This document shows positions 9,750 to 22,043 of a stretch of DNA of 64,000 bases, piece by piece. The stretch is from assembly GCA_017991635.1 (NCBI GenBank), contig JAGOQE010000002.1:100237-164236 (forward strand), written 5' to 3'. Made by a program: the position numbers and the translations under genes. The notes beneath the pieces were generated by a model. That model did not search any database, was not told where the DNA came from, and worked only from the letters and a program-made list of their open reading frames with translations. This DNA is from Minisyncoccota bacterium. GTDB taxonomy: Bacteria > Patescibacteriota > Minisyncoccia > Phycocordibacterales > Phycocordibacteraceae. Positions within the stretch are counted from its first letter, which is position 1; each line of letters begins with the position of its first letter.

Positions 9750-10081
9750 ATTTGTTGATTATAGCTTAATTTTTTGGTGCCTCGCTCCGGCTGCTACAAA
9801 ATGAAAGTCGCCCCAAACTCTCGTTTGAGGCTCTCTCATTTGGTGCGCCGGGAAGGAACGCGGATACGCTTTTCGATCCTTACAGCAACGAGTGAGGAAA
9901 AGTGAGTAGTCTTCTAATTACTTTTTCCGAATGAGGCAGATGTATGAAATACAGGATCAGTACACCTTGTGGACATGTCTTGCTCCGCTTCGCCATGTGC
10001 TCACAAGGTTTTCGAATCCTTCCCATTCGCTTCCCAAGCGAACTCCGGCAAGCAAAAATCCTGGCAAGCCAGGATTCTTTG

Positions 10082-10164
10082 TGCGCCGGGAAGGATTCGA
10101 ACCTTCGTAGGCCGAAGCCGACAGGTTTACAGCCTGTTGTAATTGACCACTCTACCACCGACGC
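10082..10164 (-). tRNA. tRNA-Tyr (anticodon GTA), type II with long variable arm; CCA not encoded
   Basis: Reverse complement reads GCGTCGG-TGGTAGAGTGG...ACAGG-CTGTAAA-CCTGT-CGGCTTCGGCCTACG-AAGGTTCGAATCCTTC-CCGGCGC-A. It has a 7-bp acceptor stem, GTA anticodon in a 7-nt loop, long variable arm and TTCGAAT T-loop. Confidence 0.75.
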
Positions 10165-11477: not shown

Positions 11478-13268
11478 TTAGTCAGCAATAAAACCGCCGG
11501 CCTGAATGTTCCAGAGCTTGTGATACAGACCTCCCTCAGTCAGAAGTTCATCGTGTGTGCCGTCAGCAGCAACTCTCCCACCTTCAACGACAAGAATTCT
11601 ATCCATCTTCATGATGGTTGAAAGTCGGTGTGCAATGATGATGACGGTCTTTCCTTCCATTAGTGTCGCCAGCGCGTCTTGGATAAGGTGCTCTGATTCA
11701 GAGTCCAAGCTTGAAGTCGCCTCATCGAGAACGAGAATTGGTGCGTCTTTGAGGATGGCGCGCGCAATAGCTACACGCTGGCGTTCACCGCCTGAGAGCT
11801 TGATACCGCGTTCACCAACAAAAGTCTCGTATCCTTCAGGGAGTTTGCTGATGAACTCGTGGCAGTGTGCCTTCTTTGACGCTTCAATTACTTCCTCGTC
11901 AGTAGCGTCTTGCTTACCGTAGCGAATATTATCCTTAAGAGTTCTATGGAAAAGAATTGGTTCTTGAGGAACAAAGGCAATAGCGCTTCTAAGTGACTCC
12001 TGTGTGATAGCGCGAATGTCGGTGTTATCGATGGTTACAGAGCCACCCGATACGTCATACAAACGAAGAAGGAGTTTCGTTATGGTTGACTTCCCTGCTC
12101 CAGAGGGTCCCACGAGCGCCACTTTCTGACTATCAGGAATAGTGAAGGAAAGGTCTTTGAGTACTGACGCATTCTCACCAAAACCAAACTCAACATTTGA
12201 GAACGTTATCGTTCCCTGCACGCCTACAAGAGTTGAGGCGTGCTCAGTGTCCTGAATGCCGTGAGGCTTCTCCATGATTTCAATCATCTCGTACGCATCA
12301 GCAAAGGCGTCATAGAGCTTGCGCATACTACTTCCCATATTCCAGATACGGTCGATAAGACCAATCATGTAAATCTGAATAAGGACAAAGTCACCGACAC
12401 TCAAAATACCTTCCTTCCAGAGAAAGAGCGCTCCTCCAAGAAGAACGAGTTCAATAAATATAGATAGGATGCCCTGTACGGCATACAGCCACGCATCAGC
12501 GTCCCAAGAAATGTTTGTCGCTTTGCGCCAACGTTCAATTGCTCCAGCAAAAAGGGTGCGTTCACGCTTCTCGGTCGCAAAGAGTGTGATGGTGGAGTGA
12601 TTCGAAACAGCATCAGAAAGGAGGCCGGTCACCTTACTATCTTCCTCAGCACGAATAATACGGAGCGACTGGCGCCAGCGCGTCATCACAAACTGAATCC
12701 AGATAAAGAAAACACACCAGACAAAGAGAACAAAACCAAGGATAGGATTCTTGATTGAGAGAATAGTAATGACTCCAATCGCAAAGAGTGTTGTCGCGTA
12801 GAAGTTGAACGCAAAACTATCAAGAACCTGCTCAAAGGCTCGCGCGTAGCGATTCACCTTTCTGGTGAGTGCTCCTGCAAAGTTAGAGATGAAGAAGTCG
12901 TGGGAGTGCCCAAGCAAGTACCCAAACGCCTTATTGGAAAGATCAGCCATTACCTTTGCCTCAATATGCATGAGGGAAAGCATGCGTATGCGTTGACCCA
13001 CCCAGCCAACAGTCATGGAAAGTCCGAAGAAGCCAAGCACCACAAAGAGAATCTTTAGTGATTCGTTAGTTGGTGAAAGTTTCGCAAGTTGGTCGATAAA
13101 CTCGCCCAAGAAAAGCGGAGCAATGATTCCGGTAATTTCAATAACGAGTCCGCCGACAAGAACGCCAGTGAGAAGCCATGGGTACTTCTTTGCCGCAGTG
13201 AAATACGAAACAAGCACGGGTTTCACCCGTGTCTTTACTTTCTTTTCTTCCATACCCTCGCTCGACAT
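11478..13268 (-). CDS. ABC exporter, fused permease/ATP-binding protein (MsbA-like)
   Basis: 596 aa. 6 TM helices, then Walker A 'GPSGAGKST', signature 'LSGGERQRVAIARA', Walker B 'ILVLDEATS'. Confidence 0.85.
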   Translation of the reverse strand: MSSEGMEEKKVKTRVKPVLVSYFTAAKKYPWLLTGVLVGGLVIEITGIIAPLFLGEFIDQLAKLSPTNESLKILFVVLGFFGLSMTVGWVGQRIRMLSLMHIEAKVMADLSNKAFGYLLGHSHDFFISNFAGALTRKVNRYARAFEQVLDSFAFNFYATTLFAIGVITILSIKNPILGFVLFVWCVFFIWIQFVMTRWRQSLRIIRAEEDSKVTGLLSDAVSNHSTITLFATEKRERTLFAGAIERWRKATNISWDADAWLYAVQGILSIFIELVLLGGALFLWKEGILSVGDFVLIQIYMIGLIDRIWNMGSSMRKLYDAFADAYEMIEIMEKPHGIQDTEHASTLVGVQGTITFSNVEFGFGENASVLKDLSFTIPDSQKVALVGPSGAGKSTITKLLLRLYDVSGGSVTIDNTDIRAITQESLRSAIAFVPQEPILFHRTLKDNIRYGKQDATDEEVIEASKKAHCHEFISKLPEGYETFVGERGIKLSGGERQRVAIARAILKDAPILVLDEATSSLDSESEHLIQDALATLMEGKTVIIIAHRLSTIMKMDRILVVEGGRVAADGTHDELLTEGGLYHKLWNIQAGGFIAD

Positions 13269-13523: not shown

Positions 13524-14174
13524 ATGGCTATTATCGTCTACGAAGGAATCAATGTTTCGCTTGGTGTCCTTGAGAAGTGGCACATCACCCACTACTTGCC
13601 GTACATCAATCGTCGACTGAGTATTGAAGGCACGATGCAGCGCGGACCTTACACAGAAGATATGGGTCTCGAGTGGCTCAAATCTCAGCAGGAGAAACGC
13701 GGAAAAAATGAAGTCTTTGCTGTCTATCGTCACGACGATTCTGGTGAAGAACGTCAGTATGTCTATATCGGTAATACTGATCTGCATGACATCAACCGTG
13801 AACACAGCTACGCCACCTCAGGCTCTATGCTCTTCTCGTTTGATGATCAAGGCAAAGGGCTCGGTACGGAGGCAAAACTGCTTCTTCTGTACCATGCCTT
13901 CAGGGTGCTTGGTCTTCGTAAGGTGAATTCCGACGTGAAGGCATTCAATGCCAGGAGCCTCGGACACCTCATCAAGACTGGATACAAAATCATCGGACGT
14001 AGGGAGAAGCATCACCTCCACGACGGTGACTTTGTCGACAATATCTTGCTTGAGATTTTCCGCGACTCTTGGGAGAAAATCTGGGCACGCTACAAAGTAG
14101 ACGGCACGCTTCCGAAACTCACCAAAAAGGAGCGCAGGCGTATCGAAAAAGAAACTAACATCAAAAACAAATAA
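13524..14174 (+). CDS. GNAT-family N-acetyltransferase
   Basis: 216 aa. Acetyl-CoA motif 'QGKGLGTEA' (Q/RxxGxG/A) and RimL-like layout. Confidence 0.55.
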   Translation: MAIIVYEGINVSLGVLEKWHITHYLPYINRRLSIEGTMQRGPYTEDMGLEWLKSQQEKRGKNEVFAVYRHDDSGEERQYVYIGNTDLHDINREHSYATSGSMLFSFDDQGKGLGTEAKLLLLYHAFRVLGLRKVNSDVKAFNARSLGHLIKTGYKIIGRREKHHLHDGDFVDNILLEIFRDSWEKIWARYKVDGTLPKLTKKERRRIEKETNIKNK

Positions 14175-14215: not shown

Positions 14216-15160
14216 CTACGCGAGTGTTCTGTATTTGTCTGAAAAGTAGAGATACTTCCGATACATGTAAGAAGACGAGAGTTTTCTTACTGTAGAGTCA
14301 GTGTTCAGTCGGTCACAGAAGAATGTTGCCGTGTCAGCAAGCGCGGACTGCGTTGTCCAAAGGTATATTTCACGCATATCCGTGAATGAGTGTATTGCCG
14401 TCGAGTTGTAGCCAGCAATGAAATTATCAAAAGCTTCTTGATTCGGCGCACTCTCGCCGTCTTTAAAAGACCACTCCATCGCGCCGTGCGCTAAGTCTTT
14501 AATAAGTGGACCCATACAGCTCCAGTCAAAGTCAATTACGCCAGAAACGGTCTTAGGGTCAGCGAAGAACACATTCCCTGGTCTGAAGTCGTTGTGAAGC
14601 AAACCATAAGGAGAGGTGGTTTCTTTGGTGAGCTCAAGAATACTTTTGATTTCTTCAATAAGCTGAGCTCCGCCCTCTAAGCTCGTCTCGATTTCGTTTC
14701 TGAGTGTTAACGCGCGCTCAAGTTCACTGTATACCGTCCGAGCTCGAGCGTGCTCAGGAATAAAGTCTTCCCCTGCTTTCGCAATCATTCCGAGCGTCGC
14801 CCCTGCAGTAAAAGTGTGCTCACTAATGGGAACTTCGCCGTCAAAGTTCGCATGATAGCCTTCAACGAAACTAAACATGACGGCAACTTCTCCCTCTACC
14901 GTTTCAACATAGATGTCGCCAGATTTGGTTAAAATCAACTTTGGAACAGGCACGGCCTTCTCTTCGAGAGTTCTAAGTGCCTGGTGTTCAAAATGTATTT
15001 CGGGTACCGAAAGTTTCTTTCCGATACGAAGTATCTTCTTGTTGGTACTTCCTGCCGTGTACACGCGGTTATCACTCGACTCACGTAAGAGAATGCATGG
15101 AGCGTGCTCTGCAAGCTGATACTCAGAAATCACTTTCTCGATTTCATCCATGTGCGTCAT
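14216..15160 (-). CDS. Phosphotransferase-family protein (APH/choline-kinase-like small-molecule kinase)
   Basis: 314 aa. Catalytic 'HNDFRPGNVFF' (HxDxxxxN) and 'IDFDWS' (DFG-equivalent). Confidence 0.6.
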   Translation of the reverse strand: MTHMDEIEKVISEYQLAEHAPCILLRESSDNRVYTAGSTNKKILRIGKKLSVPEIHFEHQALRTLEEKAVPVPKLILTKSGDIYVETVEGEVAVMFSFVEGYHANFDGEVPISEHTFTAGATLGMIAKAGEDFIPEHARARTVYSELERALTLRNEIETSLEGGAQLIEEIKSILELTKETTSPYGLLHNDFRPGNVFFADPKTVSGVIDFDWSCMGPLIKDLAHGAMEWSFKDGESAPNQEAFDNFIAGYNSTAIHSFTDMREIYLWTTQSALADTATFFCDRLNTDSTVRKLSSSYMYRKYLYFSDKYRTLA

Positions 15161-15963
15161 TTAAGAAAATTACTAGCACTCACCTTCTCAAGCTCAGTCC
15201 ACGTCATTTTAGGGTTACGTTTTTTTAATTCCTTAACTAGGTGATACCCAATTGAGTACCCGGACCATTTTGGGAACTTAGTGCTACCGAGTAATACCTG
15301 GTCACTAAGTTTTTTACTTTTTGAGTTTAAATCTGATTCAATTTCCTTAAGCCACTTTTTCGAGTTTGCAAAACTAAGTGCCGTCGCCCATGGGGCAGGC
15401 TTACCACCTACGGCATCTTCTCTAAAATTTTCAGCCAATCCTTCAATCAACATGTTCTGCAATAGCCCGTAGCTTTTGGAAGAATGCATTTTGTAATAGA
15501 TAAGATGATTGTACTCGTGAGCAACTGTCTCCTTAATTGAGAGTAGTGTGTGCTTATTTGGATTTACAAATAAGTGCAAAACATTTGAGTGCGGAGCTAC
15601 CGCATTTACCCCACCAAACTGCTTAGATTCTTCAGTACCAGGAAACCAAGGGAAGACAAAAATATATATAGGAAGCTCCGGATGAGTGAGAAGCTTTACG
15701 CACTTTGTTAAAGTCTGCTCAACAGTAGCCGCAATCTTCACCTTTCTTTCTGGTGATAGACGAGTATATGATTTCGCGTCAAAGTCCCCTAGCCTGCGCA
15801 ATAAGTCCGAGCGAAGGTCCCCGTCTTCCATGTAGCCAGCGAAGTCAATGCTTCCGCTCCTCTGCATTGAAGAGATTAGGATGTCGGCAAAATCTATTGT
15901 CGTTGAGATCTTCCCACTTATGGCTGGAAAGCAGAAATTAATGACGGACTGTTCTTTCCTCAT
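15157..15963 (-). CDS. Putative zinc-dependent peptidase (HExxH; DUF2268-like)
   Basis: 268 aa. 'VAHEYNHLIY' HExxH motif. 4-nt overlap with the downstream kinase suggests an operon. Confidence 0.35.
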   Translation of the reverse strand: MRKEQSVINFCFPAISGKISTTIDFADILISSMQRSGSIDFAGYMEDGDLRSDLLRRLGDFDAKSYTRLSPERKVKIAATVEQTLTKCVKLLTHPELPIYIFVFPWFPGTEESKQFGGVNAVAPHSNVLHLFVNPNKHTLLSIKETVAHEYNHLIYYKMHSSKSYGLLQNMLIEGLAENFREDAVGGKPAPWATALSFANSKKWLKEIESDLNSKSKKLSDQVLLGSTKFPKWSGYSIGYHLVKELKKRNPKMTWTELEKVSASNFLK

Positions 15964-16022: not shown

Positions 16023-16637
16023 CTAAATTTTCCTCGCAATTATGTGAAATAGGTGCCAGTGGTGTGGGTCTCCCAAAGCTGTAGGTGTGTCCTTTTCTTC
16101 TTCTTCAAATTTTATAATCTCCAAGTCGCCAAGTAGGTTTTGCATCTGCTCCCTTGTCTTAAAGTTCATGTCTGACCGTATTGCCCAGGAATCGTTAGGG
16201 CCAAAAAACTGGCCTGTAAAAATACCACCAGCCTGTAGTGACTTCTTAATACTCTCAAAAACATCGTCAATTCTATTAGGATTACAAAAAGAAAGTGCAA
16301 ACTGAGCGTTGACTATACTGTACTCATTTTTTGGAAAAGGAAATTCCTCGAAGGACGAGATTATCGCCGAAGGAATATACTCAAGCACCTTGTCAGAAGA
16401 GTCTACTGAAGTAACTGTATACCCTAACTCTTGAAGGTGGTATGTGTCCCCACTTGCTCCACATCCAAGATCTAAGGCACTGCCTGTCTTATTTGCATAC
16501 TGCAAGGCTTCAACGAGAAGCACTCGAGGTTTGGTGTTCACCTTTTTGTAATACTCCTTCCATTTGTCAGTGCTCATGAGTATGAAAAGTATACCCTGGC
16601 CAGTATTGAGGTGGGCACGGGTCGCTGGTCCAAACAC
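16023..16637 (-). CDS. Class I SAM-dependent methyltransferase
   Basis: 204 aa. Motif I 'ALDLGCGASGD' and small TehB/UbiE-like size. Confidence 0.6.
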   Translation of the reverse strand: MFGPATRAHLNTGQGILFILMSTDKWKEYYKKVNTKPRVLLVEALQYANKTGSALDLGCGASGDTYHLQELGYTVTSVDSSDKVLEYIPSAIISSFEEFPFPKNEYSIVNAQFALSFCNPNRIDDVFESIKKSLQAGGIFTGQFFGPNDSWAIRSDMNFKTREQMQNLLGDLEIIKFEEEEKDTPTALGDPHHWHLFHIIARKI

Positions 16638-16662: not shown

Positions 16663-17181
16663 ATGACGACTGGGAAGGACGCTCTAAATAATATAAATAC
16701 AATTGCTGATCTGTACGCACATTTTTCAGTAAAAAATGATGAGGAGCTTGAAAAAATGTACATGGAGCTTGACCAAAGGCTTATGATGTCAGGTTCTTGG
16801 GATTATAAGAATGAATCATTCTTGACGAATCAAATTGCCAAAGCGATAGAAAAAGTTGGTCTTGAGAATACCACTAATGTAGAGGAAAGGTACTGGCTCC
16901 AGCAAATGGTTTGGTTGTGGTATCACCATGCAATTACCTGTGCAATTGAGAAATACGGTGACGCACAGCAAGCGCTAGAATTTTCTGAAAAGGCACTTCA
17001 GTGGCAACCAAAAAATCATCCAAATAAAATAACCCGCCTTCTTTACCTACTTTTAAAAAATGAAGTTGCGCAAGCTAAGGAGTGGACTGCAACAATAACG
17101 ACCGAACCAGAACGGACAACCTCACTGGCAATTTTAACTTCATATGAAGAAGGTACTTTTTTGAATAAAAGTGAACCTTGA
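16663..17181 (+). CDS. Hypothetical protein (start uncertain; the longer ORF from 16564 overlaps the convergent methyltransferase)
   Basis: ORF only. No motif recognised. Trp/Tyr-rich helical protein. Confidence 0.3.
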   Translation: MTTGKDALNNINTIADLYAHFSVKNDEELEKMYMELDQRLMMSGSWDYKNESFLTNQIAKAIEKVGLENTTNVEERYWLQQMVWLWYHHAITCAIEKYGDAQQALEFSEKALQWQPKNHPNKITRLLYLLLKNEVAQAKEWTATITTEPERTTSLAILTSYEEGTFLNKSEP

Positions 17182-17248
17182 CTTCACTTGCTGTGTGCCA
17201 TAGTCTTCTGAGAGAGTCGTTGAAAATTCAACCAAAGGAGCTCGTTCA

Positions 17249-17416
17249 ATGAACAAGCAACGGTCTACAATTACGCCTCAAAGCCCTCTCTTGTTGAGGA
17301 GGTTAAGGCAGAAGCCTGCCGTGTCGGTTGGTGTCACTGCCAGCCACTTCACTGTGGTGAGTACGCAAGGAAACAGGCCTGAAATGCATGATCAGCAGGA
17401 AGACAGGTACCGATAG
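17249..17416 (+). CDS. Small ORF (55 aa), candidate RiPP/graspetide precursor peptide
   Basis: ATG at 17249 with SD AAAGGAG 8 nt upstream. Encodes MNKQRSTITPQSPLLLRRLRQKPAVSVGVTASHFTVVSTQGNRPEMHDQQEDRYR. Followed by an intrinsic terminator at 17447-17478. 'SPLLLRRL' resembles the PFFARFL leader motif of microviridin precursors, and the C-terminus carries Thr/Ser plus Asp/Glu residues. Confidence 0.3.
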   Translation: MNKQRSTITPQSPLLLRRLRQKPAVSVGVTASHFTVVSTQGNRPEMHDQQEDRYR

Positions 17417-17446
17417 GTACCCTAATTCTCTACTGTTCACGCAAAG

Positions 17447-17478
17447 AACCACCGCGACCTGGGTCGCGGTGGTTTTTC
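17447..17478. terminator. Intrinsic terminator (hairpin + T-run) between the convergent small ORF and ATP-grasp gene
   Basis: AACCACCGCGACC-TGG-GTCGCGGTGGTTTTT. Confidence 0.55.
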
Positions 17479-18469
17479 AATAAGAACTAAGCATTCGAGC
17501 AACTGACTCAGGTATGGGTAGTCCAGCAAGATCGTGTATCCAACCCCACTGTCCAGAAGGATTTACTTCTAGAAATACAAACTCACCAGATGGTGTCTCG
17601 ATCAAATCGATTGCGCCAAACCGTAAGTCGATTTTTTTCATGAACTTACGTAACGAGTCCTTTACCTGGTCAGGCAAGTCAACTTGCACGTGCTCAACGT
17701 TATCAAAGTCGTAATGCCTCCAGTCAGTTTTTGTTTTTTCGCTTGATTGGGAGTCAATTCGACACGCAAGCACTTCGTCTCCGATTACCATTACACGATG
17801 TTCGTACTTCTTTTCGATGTACGTCTGAGCAAATACCGGGCAAAGCCTGATTGCTTCAGTAGAGGCGCGGATTTCATCCGCACTAAATCTTTCCGAGTAA
17901 ATTGCAAGCGAGTCATCATCGTCGAGCCTAATGTAACCAATAGTTTTCACAAGTGCCCCACGATGCCTCCTGGCAAAAACAGTAACTCTATCAGGATCAT
18001 TACTGACGATAGTGTCCGGGGTCAGTAGTCCCGAGCTTGCTGCCACAACTTGCTGATAGAGTTTATTGCTCGAAACTCTATCCATGGCACCATGACTATT
18101 AATCCAGACACAATCTAGTGTCGAAAGGATTGCTTCAAGAGCATGTGCCGTCTCATTTCTTCTGAATCTTGAATCAAGAGAATCAGACTCCCCATCACTT
18201 GATGGGCGGTAGTTTTCTCTTACATACCAAGCAATTGCGATCTCATTGAGCTTGACTCCACTCTTCACAAATTCGTCGCCCAAAAGTTGGTACGTGTCGA
18301 TGTACCCAGCGAGCTTTTGTCCGGCCTGCTCGATACTGAGCAGCATCTCTACTGGGTATCGAGATGGATCACAGATGTGTATCGAGATATCCAGGTTGTG
18401 GCAAGCCTTGATAAACGGTTCGTAGTAATAGCGTTCCTCCAGGCCAGCAATAAGAAGCACATTCCTCAT
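17477..18469 (-). CDS. ATP-grasp ribosomal-peptide maturase (microviridin MdnC/MvdD-type graspetide ligase)
   Basis: 330 aa. N-terminal pre-ATP-grasp region 'MRNVLLIAGLEE...DPSRYP' (compare MdnC MTVLIVT...DTDRFP). 'DWR' motif. C-terminal 'GAIDLIETPSGEFVFLEVNPSGQWGWI...PI' closely matches the MdnC 'GAIDMIVTPDERYIFLEINPVGEFFWLE...PI' block, recalled from memory. Confidence 0.65.
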   Translation of the reverse strand: MRNVLLIAGLEERYYYEPFIKACHNLDISIHICDPSRYPVEMLLSIEQAGQKLAGYIDTYQLLGDEFVKSGVKLNEIAIAWYVRENYRPSSDGESDSLDSRFRRNETAHALEAILSTLDCVWINSHGAMDRVSSNKLYQQVVAASSGLLTPDTIVSNDPDRVTVFARRHRGALVKTIGYIRLDDDDSLAIYSERFSADEIRASTEAIRLCPVFAQTYIEKKYEHRVMVIGDEVLACRIDSQSSEKTKTDWRHYDFDNVEHVQVDLPDQVKDSLRKFMKKIDLRFGAIDLIETPSGEFVFLEVNPSGQWGWIHDLAGLPIPESVARMLSSY

Positions 18470-18579
18470 GACTTACTCCGAAAACAGTATGAACTCTGGG
18501 ATTTTTATACGTTACATGCACAGATTAGTCAAAGTAGTGCTACGGTATTGAATAAGGCAGCTCCAGCTTCGAATATTCA

Positions 18580-20223
18580 CTAAATAGGAAGTTCGATGGT
18601 GAAGGTTGAGCCCTTGCCCTCTCCTTCTGACTCAGCGAAGACGTGTCCGCCGTGGGCTTCGATGATGTTCTTAACGATGTAAAGACCAAAGCCAGTTGAG
18701 TCGACGTTAATCTTTTGTGAGTTTGTGCCGTGACCTCCTTCTGTGAAGAGCTTCGCCATGTCTTCCTTGGTGATACCTACACCAGTGTCCTTTACGGTGA
18801 AGCGTACTAGCTTGTCTGCTTTTGTTAGTGCGACTGCAACAGTTCCCTTCGGAGTGTACTTAATTGAGTTATCAATGAGGTTCTTGATTGCCTGTAGAAG
18901 CTGAATACGGTCGCCGTGAATCATCACAGGTTCAGCGCCAAGTGAGAGTTCAAGTGTGAGTCCTTTTGTTTCTGCGAGAGGCTTAAGGTCGCCAGCAATT
19001 TCTTCAGTTAGTGCCTTCACGTCAAATTCTGCTTTTGAGTACGTCACCTTTCCGCTCTTAATGTTCGCTGCACTCAAAATTTCCTGAATGGTGTTGGCGC
19101 CCTTAGTATCCGAACGGAATCCTTCCTCAATAAGTGGCCTCATTGAGTCTGGAAGCTGTCCGTAGTCACCGTCCAAGAGAAGCGAGAAGATGTTGCGTGA
19201 CTTGGCCACAAAGCCCTTAATCTGGTGGGTGATGAAGTGAATAAGAATGACCTGTTGCTTGTTTGAAAATTCAAGATTCTGAGCAAGCTTCTCAATCTCT
19301 TCTCTTTGTTTAATCTCTCTCTGTACTCCCTTAATGAGCCAGTAGCCGAGAATGAAAACCAGAACTAGAGTTCCGAAGAGAACATAACGCACGTTCTCAA
19401 TGGTCCTGACGAATAGAGCACTAAAGACGGCCGTAATAACAGCAACAATAAGCGCTTGCGCAGAAATTACTTTGACGTTGAATGCACGGTACGCGACGAT
19501 TAGATACGTAAGTGAGCCCAAGAAAAGAACCATTCCAATAGGTCCCAAGAGGTTGATGTCGTAGATTAATGTCGCGTCACCAATTGCATAGCTTGAAACG
19601 TAGATAAGCAAACAAAGTGCGGTCGCCAAAGAAAGGAGAAGTGATTTTCGTTTCTGACTAGCTGATACACAACTCCTACTGAACTTAACACCAAAGTAGA
19701 GTAGTGATGCACCCACAAGGGTATCAAGTCCATAAATATAGAACCAGAGAATGCCCTGCAAACTTTCGCAATTAGTCATGTCAAAAGCCGAAAGGTTGAG
19801 TGGAGACGGGGTCAGTAGTATCGGAGGCAAGGCTAGAGCAGCCCAAATCCACTTTGCACGGAGCGACAAATCCTTTTCTGCAATAAATGTGTATGTGAAG
19901 TACCCAAGAAGGTAGACAAACAGAATATGAAGAACGGAAAGATTGCCCCATATGAAGTGTATGAGGTGCACTGGCGCACTAATCCATAGGAGAATCTCAC
20001 TCGAGAGTGACACCGCAAAAAGTACTGTAGCCCAAAGTAGAATCTTGCTCGCAAGTGTTTTCTTTGACGCAAAGAAAATAAACAGCGCAAACAAGAGCGA
20101 AATAATAATAATAGGAACGTATGAGTAGTACATAAATGCCGGAGCAATTGAAGGGTCAAGTACACCGAAAAGCGTCGGAAGTGCATCAGAACAAGTCAGA
20201 GAAAAATCAAAGAGAGTATTCAT
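18580..20223 (-). CDS. Sensor histidine kinase with polytopic (about 7-8 TM) N-terminal sensor domain
   Basis: 547 aa. Multiple TM helices. Phospho-acceptor region 'ILIHFITHQIKGFV'. HATPase_c G-boxes 'IDNSIKYT...GFGLYIVKNIIEAHGGHV...GKGSTFTIELP'. Confidence 0.75.
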   Translation of the reverse strand: MNTLFDFSLTCSDALPTLFGVLDPSIAPAFMYYSYVPIIIISLLFALFIFFASKKTLASKILLWATVLFAVSLSSEILLWISAPVHLIHFIWGNLSVLHILFVYLLGYFTYTFIAEKDLSLRAKWIWAALALPPILLTPSPLNLSAFDMTNCESLQGILWFYIYGLDTLVGASLLYFGVKFSRSCVSASQKRKSLLLSLATALCLLIYVSSYAIGDATLIYDINLLGPIGMVLFLGSLTYLIVAYRAFNVKVISAQALIVAVITAVFSALFVRTIENVRYVLFGTLVLVFILGYWLIKGVQREIKQREEIEKLAQNLEFSNKQQVILIHFITHQIKGFVAKSRNIFSLLLDGDYGQLPDSMRPLIEEGFRSDTKGANTIQEILSAANIKSGKVTYSKAEFDVKALTEEIAGDLKPLAETKGLTLELSLGAEPVMIHGDRIQLLQAIKNLIDNSIKYTPKGTVAVALTKADKLVRFTVKDTGVGITKEDMAKLFTEGGHGTNSQKINVDSTGFGLYIVKNIIEAHGGHVFAESEGEGKGSTFTIELPI

Positions 20224-20225
20224 AA

Positions 20226-20429
20226 CTATTCAGAAATATCCTGTTCAGGTACCTCTTCGCTGAGGAGTTCGTCAGTGTCAGTTTCGTCGGAAGTAGTTTC
20301 TTCTAACTCTGTCTCAATTACAGGAACGTGTCCCGCATAAAGTGCCTCGTACGCGTTTGCCCCAATTGCGATAAGTGAGGCAACAATAAGGATCAGTGCT
20401 GGAGCCCATGTCTTAGAGAAAAAACTCAT
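20226..20429 (-). CDS. Small membrane-anchored protein with highly acidic Thr/Ser-rich C-terminal tail, first gene of the HK / ATP-grasp operon; alternative graspetide precursor candidate
   Basis: 67 aa: TM helix then 'ETELEETTSDETDTDELLSEEVPEQDISE'. Stop is 3 nt before the HK start codon. Confidence 0.35.
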   Translation of the reverse strand: MSFFSKTWAPALILIVASLIAIGANAYEALYAGHVPVIETELEETTSDETDTDELLSEEVPEQDISE

Positions 20430-20460: not shown

Positions 20461-21330
20461 TTATGTATTACTGTGCCCAGGCGGAGCAACTTTTGAACTT
20501 TTGAGCACTTGTAGGGCGTGAGTGGGATAGCTAATCCAGTAGCCTGCACTTTCGACTGAGGTGGGGGTAAGTTGCGCGATAAGTGGCCTGCATCCAAACT
20601 TCTCTTCCACAAATTTGAAGGCGGGGCGCAGGACTTTACGGACAAACTTCCATTCTTCAGAATCTTCAACTGTATAGTCCTCAAATAGTATTCCGTGAAC
20701 AATAAAGAGAGCGAGAAACTTCTTGTAATGAGCAAGTAACTTTCCTCTGTTATGACGGTCAATCCAGTCTGAGTCATCCACAATAGAGACTTCTCGATTG
20801 GTAAGCTCTTTAAAAAGTCGTCTATGAAAATCACTTAACTTTTCTCCCCACTCTGTCTCAATAGTATGAAAAGGTTCACCGCTATGTCTATTAAAATCAA
20901 TAATTCGAACATTCTCAAACTGCTCCACAAAGGCACCGTCTACTTTTGACATTCCTGTAGAGACAGAAAGTTTTCCGAGGGCTTTTTTAAGTTGGTTTTT
21001 GGGGACAAACTTATCCTTGAGGTCCTGACCAATTACTGTCTTAAGCTCCAGTGGCTCAACAAGGTGGAGAAAGCGCAACGTTTCGAAATTTGGAGTTGCA
21101 ACATGCCGAGCGAGATACAGCACAGGCGGGCTAGAAAAGTGCTCGGGAATATCCCCTTTGAGGTATTCCTCGACCTTTTTTCTGAGTTCCGGGTCACTGT
21201 TTCTCCTCCTAATTTCCTCTACAGCTTCATGGAGTGGAGTGATTAAATCAGAAGCTCCTACACTGCGAGGAGTTCTCATTTTACGTAAACCAGTAAGGTG
21301 CCTTGATAGCGCACCTGCGATTCTTTTCAT
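20461..21330 (-). CDS. Hypothetical protein
   Basis: 289-aa ORF with a coding-like composition. No motif recognised. Confidence 0.35.
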   Translation of the reverse strand: MKRIAGALSRHLTGLRKMRTPRSVGASDLITPLHEAVEEIRRRNSDPELRKKVEEYLKGDIPEHFSSPPVLYLARHVATPNFETLRFLHLVEPLELKTVIGQDLKDKFVPKNQLKKALGKLSVSTGMSKVDGAFVEQFENVRIIDFNRHSGEPFHTIETEWGEKLSDFHRRLFKELTNREVSIVDDSDWIDRHNRGKLLAHYKKFLALFIVHGILFEDYTVEDSEEWKFVRKVLRPAFKFVEEKFGCRPLIAQLTPTSVESAGYWISYPTHALQVLKSSKVAPPGHSNT

Positions 21331-21410
21331 ACGTTCTGGTGTTTAAAGTATAGCACTAGGGACGAGAGCTGTGGGTATGTATAGAGAAAGGGGGACGACA
21401 CGCAAGCGCA

Positions 21411-22043
21411 TCATCCCCCAATAGTGTTCCCCACAAATTCCTGCACCAGGTGCCAGAACTCAATTACGAGAACTGCGAGCTTCTCCCACGCGTACGCGAG
21501 GGCAGAAAATGCATTTCCGTTCAGGAGCTGCTCCGGTTCAGGAAAGAGGACTTGGGCAAGTTCGATGCCACCGAAGACAAAGAACGCCCAAGAAATGTTC
21601 GAGAGAACCACGCTCGCCAGGAACGTCCGCCACTCCTCGCCTTTCATCTGATACGAATCTTTCGGTCGCATCAGAATCAAGGTTGTCATGGGGTCGTGCC
21701 ACAGGGTCAGGTAGATGAAGGCAAAGAATCGTGAGATTCCGCCGACAACACCGTTTGAGCCAATCCTGAAACGCTTGCGAGTTGCCTCGCCTACGTCCTT
21801 GATGGTCTCAAACCCAAGCGCATCACGCATTCCTCTGTTGCCCACCGTGTCATAGAGTCCGATAAGACCCCAGCAGATGAGAAACGAAAGGAACATCATC
21901 ACACTGGTCCCAAGGACGAGACCGAGGTGAAGAATTGCGTACGGGTAGAGCGCGTACTCGAAGAACTTGTCGAAGAGCCAAAGGCTCGTGTGAACCGTGA
22001 CCCAGAGAGGGCCACGGGTCTTGATCGTGTTGATCAGTCCCAA
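21411..22043 (-). CDS. Polytopic membrane protein, unknown function
   Basis: 210 aa, 5-6 TM helices. Confidence 0.4.
   Translation of the reverse strand: MGLINTIKTRGPLWVTVHTSLWLFDKFFEYALYPYAILHLGLVLGTSVMMFLSFLICWGLIGLYDTVGNRGMRDALGFETIKDVGEATRKRFRIGSNGVVGGISRFFAFIYLTLWHDPMTTLILMRPKDSYQMKGEEWRTFLASVVLSNISWAFFVFGGIELAQVLFPEPEQLLNGNAFSALAYAWEKLAVLVIEFWHLVQEFVGNTIGG

Follow-up and report, generated by a model that had tools for sequence, protein, structure and literature searches.

A probable three-gene graspetide cassette beside a histidine kinase gene in a Minisyncoccota bacterium

Bacteria that belong to the Candidate Phyla Radiation (CPR), or Patescibacteria, have tiny genomes and, to our knowledge, were long believed to be devoid of specialised peptide chemistry. 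In this study, we analysed a stretch of 64,000 nucleotides (64 kb; hereafter the window) of contig JAGOQE010000002.1, assembly GCA_017991635.1, from a Minisyncoccota bacterium, with emphasis on a gene for a graspetide-type ATP-grasp ligase and the open reading frames (ORFs) around it (Table 1). The ligase gene converges with a small ORF, orf55, which is preceded on its own strand by a gene for a TPR-like helical protein; on its other side, the ligase gene is preceded by a string consisting of a sensor histidine kinase gene (HK), the small ORF orf67 and the longer orf289. The coordinates of the four ORFs named in the initial annotation of this stretch (orf55, the ATP-grasp gene, HK and orf67) were all confirmed. 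We consider it probable that the ligase, orf55 and the TPR-like helper constitute a three-gene graspetide cassette in which orf55 encodes the substrate. The cassette is embedded in a conserved Paceibacterota neighbourhood, where it adjoins the kinase gene at its 3' end.

The assignment of the ligase is drawn from model ranking, sequence matches in PDB and conserved blocks. Among the NCBIfam models, TIGR04187 scored 203 bits (E 6e-60), MvdC 179 and MvdD 156, compared with 116 for grasp-with-SPASM, 54 for the RimK family and 16 for glutathione synthase, and the same ranking was obtained for 21 out of 21 aligned ligase orthologues. The graspetide models align over the full length of the protein and include the N-terminal pre-ATP-grasp region that had been recognised at the outset. 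A phmmer search of PDB at E <= 0.001 returned six matches, graspetide ligases only, namely MdnB (5ig8, 2e-34), MdnC (5ig9, 8e-31), PsnB (7drm, 4e-5), AMdnB (7m4s), CdnC (7mgv) and an MvdD-like protein (9bou); Pfam gave just weak RimK and GSH-S_ATP matches. The KTDWRHYDF block and the C-terminal GAIDLIETPSGEFVFLEVNPSGQWGWI block, from which a microviridin-type ligase had been proposed, are present as quoted and largely invariant across the 21 orthologues, with DWRHYDF and EVNPSGQWGW being invariant. Parcubacteria metagenomes hold numerous orthologues about 330 aa long that share 47-61% identity with it, and a hypothetical protein from a Candidatus Pacebacteria metagenome-assembled genome (MAG) matches the window protein at 100% identity. 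By homology the protein, the only such ligase within the window, is a predicted ATP-grasp macrocyclase related to MdnB, MdnC and PsnB, and the graspetide-type identification stands.

Relatives of the locus were taken from species-representative genomes, metagenome contigs and exact look-up; deduplication at 95% nucleotide identity of the ligase gene left 47 distinct loci. In 26 of them the flanking sequence extends for 3 kb or more to either side, and in these the presence of the peptide and of a kinase was counted (L-numbers denote fetched loci with relatives, P-numbers protein entries of our own homology search). With a strict two-motif pattern, the peptide was found beside the ligase in 25 of these 26 loci, and tblastn with the window proteins showed that orf55 is kept beside every close ligase orthologue. 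In all 24 tabulated loci it lies on the strand opposite to the ligase, usually in convergent orientation. The mean pairwise difference over the 57-nt core in 17 loci was 0.25, 0.22 and 0.62 at the first, second and third codon position, respectively, and this excess of third-position divergence indicates that orf55 is conserved at the protein level; a reading of the region as non-coding RNA was rejected on the same statistics, which show coding selection, and the Rfam scan of the window returned only a tRNA-Tyr elsewhere and a sub-threshold match caused by the terminator hairpin at orf55. A phmmer search of 1.84 billion representative proteins matched 17 clusters, all of 55-73 aa. The ATG of orf55 lies 8 nt behind a Shine-Dalgarno sequence (AAGGAG), and between the convergent genes lies a 15-bp hairpin with flanking A-tract and U-tract (-25.2 kcal/mol, z = -4.0, a stability reached by 0 of 200 shuffled sequences), which fits a bidirectional terminator shared by orf55 and the ligase gene. 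The ribosome-binding site and terminator ascribed to orf55 were thus confirmed, the terminator being common to both genes.

The alignment of the orf55 family reveals the build of a leader/core precursor. The order is a variable N-terminus, (T/S)PLLLRR, P23, a spacer of variable length and the core. In orf55 itself, the leader spans approximately residues 1-31 with the motif S12-P-L-L-L-R-R-L19 plus P23, and the core approximately residues 33-55, HFTVVSTQGNRPEMHDQQEDRYR. The family consensus reads sPLLLRR..kP for the leader and hFTVVsTxGxxPEMHDQxED for the core, the aligned core being (H/N)(M/F)T(V/I)V(T/S)TxGxxPEMxDQxxD. P13, R18, E45, D48, Q49 and D52 are invariant, and L16, P23, T35, T39, P44 and M46 nearly so; no conserved lysine is found in the family alignment. 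The SPLLLRRL segment, noticed initially for its resemblance to a microviridin leader, turned out to be the most conserved leader element of the family, and the proposal of the convergent 55-aa ORF as a substrate candidate is borne out by its co-occurrence with the ligase, coding selection and leader/core build. From conservation, T35, S/T38 and T39 are candidate donors and E45, D48 and D52 candidate acceptors, and orf55 is predicted to be a gene-encoded graspetide precursor with Thr/Ser donors and Asp/Glu acceptors, located beside its ligase. It is therefore a precise substrate candidate with named donor and acceptor residues.

The third conserved gene of the cassette, overlooked in the initial annotation, encodes a protein of 172 aa by the NCBI call (a longer ORF begins at 16564), and a high-confidence structure model shows a TPR-like fold. 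Of the 47 loci, 23 have a member of this 172-aa family next to the ligase or the peptide, 14 have a 230-aa protein that matches TPR models of Pfam, and 9 have a protein with a faint DUF6624 match. Two of these classes were found together in no locus, and the single locus without a partner is a 1.6-kb contig. All three families are helical and share a motif, aromatic-His-His / Tyr-Gln-His-Gly, as well as a conserved Arg. Common ancestry, suggested by the Y-H-H / Y-Q-H-G motif, was not supported by hhalign (probabilities of 0.6% and 1.3%). We infer that the partner has a peptide-binding accessory role. A partner that looks obligatory should enter any reconstitution, all the more because partner-dependent graspetide synthesis was first demonstrated only in 2026 (Carter et al. 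2026, PMC13097080).

On the model of characterised graspetide ligases, the cassette may work as follows. Translation of orf55 would yield the 55-aa precursor, whose leader (S)PLLLRR(L)..kP would dock on the ligase's N-terminal pre-ATP-grasp domain, by analogy with the PFFARFL helix on MdnC/MdnB. The ligase, with ATP, would then turn the side-chain carboxylates of E45, D48 and D52 into acyl-phosphates, and attack by the hydroxyls of T35, S/T38 and T39 would close as many as three omega-ester (macrolactone) rings. Nesting of these rings across the xGxxP turn would probably produce a hairpin. The co-oriented TPR-like protein is likely to bind the peptide, putatively as a chaperone, scaffold, processing factor or immunity factor, and in other lineages the 230-aa TPR protein or the DUF6624-like protein may substitute for it. 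The cassette itself encodes neither export nor leader removal. That it is kept across many CPR lineages points to a selected role, perhaps in interaction with a host or competitor.

Several points weigh against this reading. The ligase scores below the curated cut-offs of 350, 425 and 475 bits for TIGR04187, TIGR04185 (MvdC) and TIGR04184 (MvdD), respectively, so it is a divergent sister branch of the curated subfamilies rather than a member of one. The equivalence of the three partner families is positional only, since hhalign finds no significant relationship among them. No protease or exporter is consistently linked to the ligase across the cassette loci. In 11 of the 26 loci (42%) there is an intact kinase no more than 6 kb away, in several arrangements, which could reflect function rather than shared ancestry. 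Homology and conservation are the grounds for the proposed chemistry and ring pattern, and for the roles given to leader and partner. On the other side, the data show to which family the ligase belongs, that orf55 is conserved and coding and strictly co-occurs with the ligase, which fold the partner has, and that the kinase block is independent.

The foremost alternative to a self-contained three-gene cassette is that the kinase is part of the system, sensing the mature cyclic peptide as AgrC does the thiolactone peptide of AgrBDCA or controlling the cassette, and is co-transcribed with the ligase. HK is the only kinase in the window, with a HATPase_c match (E 1.5e-26) and no HisKA match; the alignment shows an H-box, HFITHQIKG, and a membrane-spanning N-terminus of about 300 aa. 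Where intact kinases of the same architecture are found near the cassette, they stand directly beside its genes in several arrangements. In the window, L086 and L097 the kinase is directly upstream of the ligase; L087, L093 and L015 have it upstream of the TPR-like gene and precursor, and L094 has it upstream of the TPR-like gene and ligase. The 110-nt gap that separates kinase and ligase revealed no terminator-like site. However, the same gap contains TTGACT-17-TATAAA, a plausible promoter missed by the consensus scan because its -10 hexamer ends in A, and thus the ligase may have a promoter of its own. More than half of the cassette loci are without a nearby kinase. The initial annotation had reported no cognate response regulator nearby, and we can extend this to the whole window: tblastn with CheY, PhoB and NarL queries detected none there or in 18 CPR cassette loci, and the queries work, as regulators were recovered with them in actinobacterial loci. 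A single locus among those fetched later, L092, has an annotated Response_reg gene, about 4 kb from the ligase. HK therefore presents the H-box and ATPase domain of a two-component system with no cognate receiver found.

The kinase block also exists on its own. Four loci found through homologues of orf289 (L174-L177) show the order orf289, EamA, small membrane ORF, kinase and tyrosyl-tRNA synthetase (TyrRS), and within 5 kb there is neither a ligase nor a peptide nor a partner. Their kinases are 46-47% identical to HK over the full length, closer than most cassette-linked ones, and their TyrRS 72%; homologues of the ABC and methyltransferase genes lie nearby. Because it is present there without graspetide genes, we regard HK, orf67 and orf289 as a conserved Paceibacterota block independent of the cassette, and the proposal of the kinase as a graspetide operon component does not hold. 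In the window, orf289 ends 31 nt upstream of orf67 and is preceded by a terminator-like hairpin, and is likely the first gene of the HK unit, a place previously given to orf67. We also asked whether orf289 might give the kinase an unconventional output, and rejected the idea: orf289 has a weak Rossmann-like nucleotidyltransferase fold match and no link to signalling. All this makes a functional role of HK in the cassette unlikely.

The kinase 3' end offers a non-functional explanation of the adjacency of kinase and ligase. L086, L087 (two copies) and L093 carry short, in-frame copies of roughly the final 35 kinase codons, stop included; these copies have the orientation of the intact kinase and lie across the cassette from it, hence as direct repeats; in L116 the kinase 3' end stands at both contig edges in the same orientation, with the cassette between. 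Further 3'-end pieces lie beside or near the cassette in L090, L103, L113, L127 and L167, and one at a locus with a more distant ligase, L065 (Table 1). The remnant in L087 agrees with the real kinase 3' end at 93 of 106 nt, and for L086 and L093 the agreement is about 76-77%. The repeats flank the cassette, which occurs in either orientation, and no recombinase is found between them. Integration into a gene's 3' end leaves such a pattern, which suggests that the site is an insertion hotspot and not a functional operon. In the window no kinase 3' remnant was found at the protein or DNA level, and gene-level GC content was not discriminating as an insertion sign. Mobility is also suggested by L016 and L019, in MAGs labelled Bryobacteraceae and Alphaproteobacteria, in which a cassette with a DUF6624-like partner, a ligase 47-48% identical and a precursor directly follows an AlpA-family gene (PF05930), with a ParB_N protein near the L016 cassette; this context suggests carriage by integrative elements outside CPR, or mis-binned contigs. 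The kinase 3'-end duplications hint at how cassettes move in genomes poor in recognisable mobile elements.

It could be proposed that both apply, with the cassette a mobile unit that enters the kinase 3' end in either orientation and regenerates this end, leaving a direct repeat of about 100 nt and bringing no recombinase of its own, and the cyclic peptide a ligand of the kinase in an Agr-like circuit of episymbiotic CPR bacteria. The mobile-unit part is directly supported in related loci, not in the window, and the ligand part is weakened by the cassette-free kinase blocks; taken together, we hold this composite to be improbable.

The initial annotation put forward both small ORFs as plausible substrates and proposed to check their conservation, and here the two part ways: orf55 is conserved, and orf67 has no homologue in 24 ligase loci by tblastn. 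The notion that orf67 is the precursor or a second one, its tail cross-linked by the ligase, draws on the composition of residues 42-67, which are acidic and rich in Thr/Ser as described, and on its place in the same gene string as the ligase. However, orf67 lacks the PLLLRR leader motif conserved in all precursors, begins with a transmembrane helix and has its stop codon (TAG) 2 nt from the kinase ATG. In L094, the closest relative (ligase 60% identical), a 43-aa ORF in the orf67 position matches residues 5-41 only (BLASTP E 9e-11), that is, the membrane helix, and ends where the acidic tail starts; positional homologues ahead of the kinase in L176 (42 aa) and L174 (140 aa) likewise conserve the N-terminal transmembrane helix alone, the tail being absent or variable. 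Since orf67 travels with the kinase and its tail is not conserved, its role as a precursor is highly improbable, and it is not worth experimental effort as a graspetide substrate. Equally improbable is a RimK/GshB-like amino-acid ligase acting on a protein or metabolite, with the small ORF unrelated: Pfam's weak RimK and GSH-S_ATP matches and the glutathione synthase or RimK-type labels given to homologues by some sources speak for it, yet full-length graspetide models outscore RimK three- to fourfold, the PDB matches are exclusively graspetide ligases, and the peptide accompanies the ligase in essentially every locus, so that the clustering with RimK/GshB named as a possible refutation is not what we found.

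Five further neighbours are found 1-5 kb from the cassette: a methyltransferase, a DUF2268 protein, an ABC exporter, a GNAT acetyltransferase and an APH-family phosphotransferase. We rejected them as cassette parts: each recurs in only 1-3 other loci, and homologues of the ABC and methyltransferase genes also flank cassette-free kinase blocks. The earlier statement that no transporter or protease is nearby needs correction, as the DUF2268 protein and the ABC exporter lie within 1.3-4 kb, though they are not recurrently linked. PADLOC defence-system models gave generic kinase-domain matches only. Some relatives have additional enzymes next to the cassette or the kinase, namely ThiF-like and nitroreductase-like proteins at L087 and a BubE / ThiF / Multi_ubiq set at L091. 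In the window, a tRNA-Tyr (GTA) just downstream of the TyrRS gene was the sole RNA gene detected.

Table 1. Coordinates of the predicted graspetide cassette, its neighbours in the window and features of related loci
Feature	Sequence	Coordinates	Strand	Remark
Precursor peptide orf55 (predicted), 55 aa	window	17249..17416	+	conserved partner of ligase
Core segment T35-D52 of orf55	window	17351..17404	+	candidate cross-link residues
Shine-Dalgarno sequence of orf55	window	17235..17240
Predicted ATP-grasp peptide macrocyclase (graspetide ligase), 330 aa	window	17477..18469	-	HMM and PDB matches
TPR-like helical partner, 172 aa (NCBI call)	window	16663..17181	+	67 nt upstream of orf55
Putative bidirectional intrinsic terminator, precursor and ligase	window	17444..17477	.	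15-bp stem
Putative ligase promoter	window	18532..18504	-	kinase-ligase gap
Polytopic sensor histidine kinase (HK), 547 aa	window	18580..20223	-	neighbour, most likely separate block
orf67, 67-aa small single-pass membrane protein	window	20226..20429	-	not graspetide precursor
orf289, conserved Parcubacteria protein	window	20461..21330	-	probable first gene of HK transcription unit
Terminator-like hairpin ahead of orf289	window	21419..21390
SAM methyltransferase	window	16023..16637	-	elsewhere with cassette: L092
DUF2268 predicted Zn-protease-like protein	window	15157..15963	-	elsewhere with cassette: L005
APH-family phosphotransferase	window	14216..15160	-	elsewhere with cassette: L090
GNAT acetyltransferase	window	13524..14174	+
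ABC exporter	window	11478..13268	-	elsewhere with cassette: L087, L092, L093
tRNA-Tyr (GTA)	window	10081..10164	-
Partner, 230-aa TPR family (example)	L006	6438-7139
Partner, DUF6624-like family (example)	L019	5440-5979
Kinase 3'-end copy	L086	8145-8246
Kinase 3'-end copies	L087	5818-5922, 4682-4771
Kinase 3'-end copy	L093	5809-5919
Kinase 3' ends at contig edges	L116	9-113, 2122-2235
Kinase 3'-end piece	L090	7676-7774		beside or near cassette
Kinase 3'-end piece	L103	2011-2194		beside or near cassette
Kinase 3'-end piece	L113	238-339		beside or near cassette
Kinase 3'-end piece	L127	5178-5309		beside or near cassette
Kinase 3'-end piece	L167	3251-3361		beside or near cassette
Kinase 3'-end piece	L065	1254-1367		locus with more distant ligase
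AlpA-family gene; ParB_N protein near cassette	L016	5565-5795, 8259-10115
AlpA-family gene	L019	4853-5158
ThiF-like and nitroreductase-like proteins	L087	9437-11632
BubE / ThiF / Multi_ubiq set	L091	7925-9738

Among known systems, AgrBDCA resembles the locus in that a polytopic membrane histidine kinase adjoins genes for a side-chain-cyclised ribosomal peptide. This is a resemblance only; unlike AgrBDCA, the locus has neither a response regulator nor an AgrB-like protease, and the kinase block exists without peptide genes. Closer is the microviridin system (MdnA with MdnB/MdnC; group 1), which has a homologous ATP-grasp ligase, a leader proline followed by a hydrophobic/basic helix-type motif (PLLLRRL here, PFFARFL in microviridin) and a C-terminal core with Thr/Ser and Asp/Glu. 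However, microviridins require PFFARFL, TxKxPSDx(D/E)(D/E) and two ligases, whereas the window presents PLLLRR, the core TVVSTQGNRPEMHDQQED and a single ligase in 64 kb. A conserved Lys that could form a lactam is absent, the core TVV(S/T)TxGxxPEMxDQxxD bears no relation to TxKYPSDWEEY, and the cassette contains a TPR-like partner instead of the MdnD acetyltransferase and MdnE transporter. The locus thus does not belong to the microviridins proper. Plesiocin and thuringinin (groups 2 and 3) form ester-only hairpins, with clustered Thr donors upstream and clustered acidic acceptors downstream of a turn. Ester-only chemistry would be expected for orf55 as well, and its donor-turn-acceptor layout is, by analogy, consistent with nested hairpin rings; the spacing is different, there is a single core copy, and the PsnB-type ligase is a weak match (7drm, E 4e-5).

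New RODEO groups from candidate phyla with high DUF6624 co-occurrence have been reported recently (Carter et al. 2026, PMC13097080). Group 42 of that study shares with our locus the candidate-phylum host, the small cassette, a PLIL..RL-type leader motif and the DUF6624 partner seen in part of our loci, and differs in its representative core, …GFTTHGTPNDPDSGGTD, as against TVVTT…PEMHDQ. The orf55 family was not found in the supplements of that paper, as far as these were available to us.

The nearest counterpart is one of two CPR branches of graspetide ligases defined by Makarova et al. (2022, Biol Direct 17:7, PMC8939145). Five ligases of this subclade were recorded at the time, the precursor clusters were taken as mutually unrelated, and associated TPR and 'cluster 23' proteins were noted, with the role of TPR left open (PMC8939145). 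The window ligase is 49-56% identical to three distinct Branch 1 ligases (P0012, P0058 and P0104). The Branch 1 core signature, TxxxTx(6-10)Dx(1-4)D (PMC8939145), is matched by orf55 as T35-VVS-T39-(8 residues)-D48-QQE-D52, and orf55 matches a near-identical representative (P0273) of cluster 1871 with E 5e-7, whose precursor, MTTTLADGMKINERTPLLLRRMEDKPEISSYPLASHMTVVTTPGMETEMHDQQEDANR, is of the same peptide family. Judging from these matches, orf55 belongs to the precursor family of clusters 1871/4012 of CPR Branch 1, with the same ligase subclade, core signature and associated TPR and 'cluster 23' proteins; the window member is distinguished by its short ...EDRYR tail and TPR172-type partner. 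The label "atypical or orphan" can therefore be dropped for a family that occurs widely in Parcubacteria and had earlier been described in silico (PMC8939145). In the texts available to us we found no experimental work on CPR graspetides, and the cassette is a further, experimentally uncharacterised member of the family predicted computationally in 2022. Unlike the earlier picture of Branch 1, the 47 distinct loci assembled here are united by one homologous precursor family, accompanied by mutually exclusive partner families.

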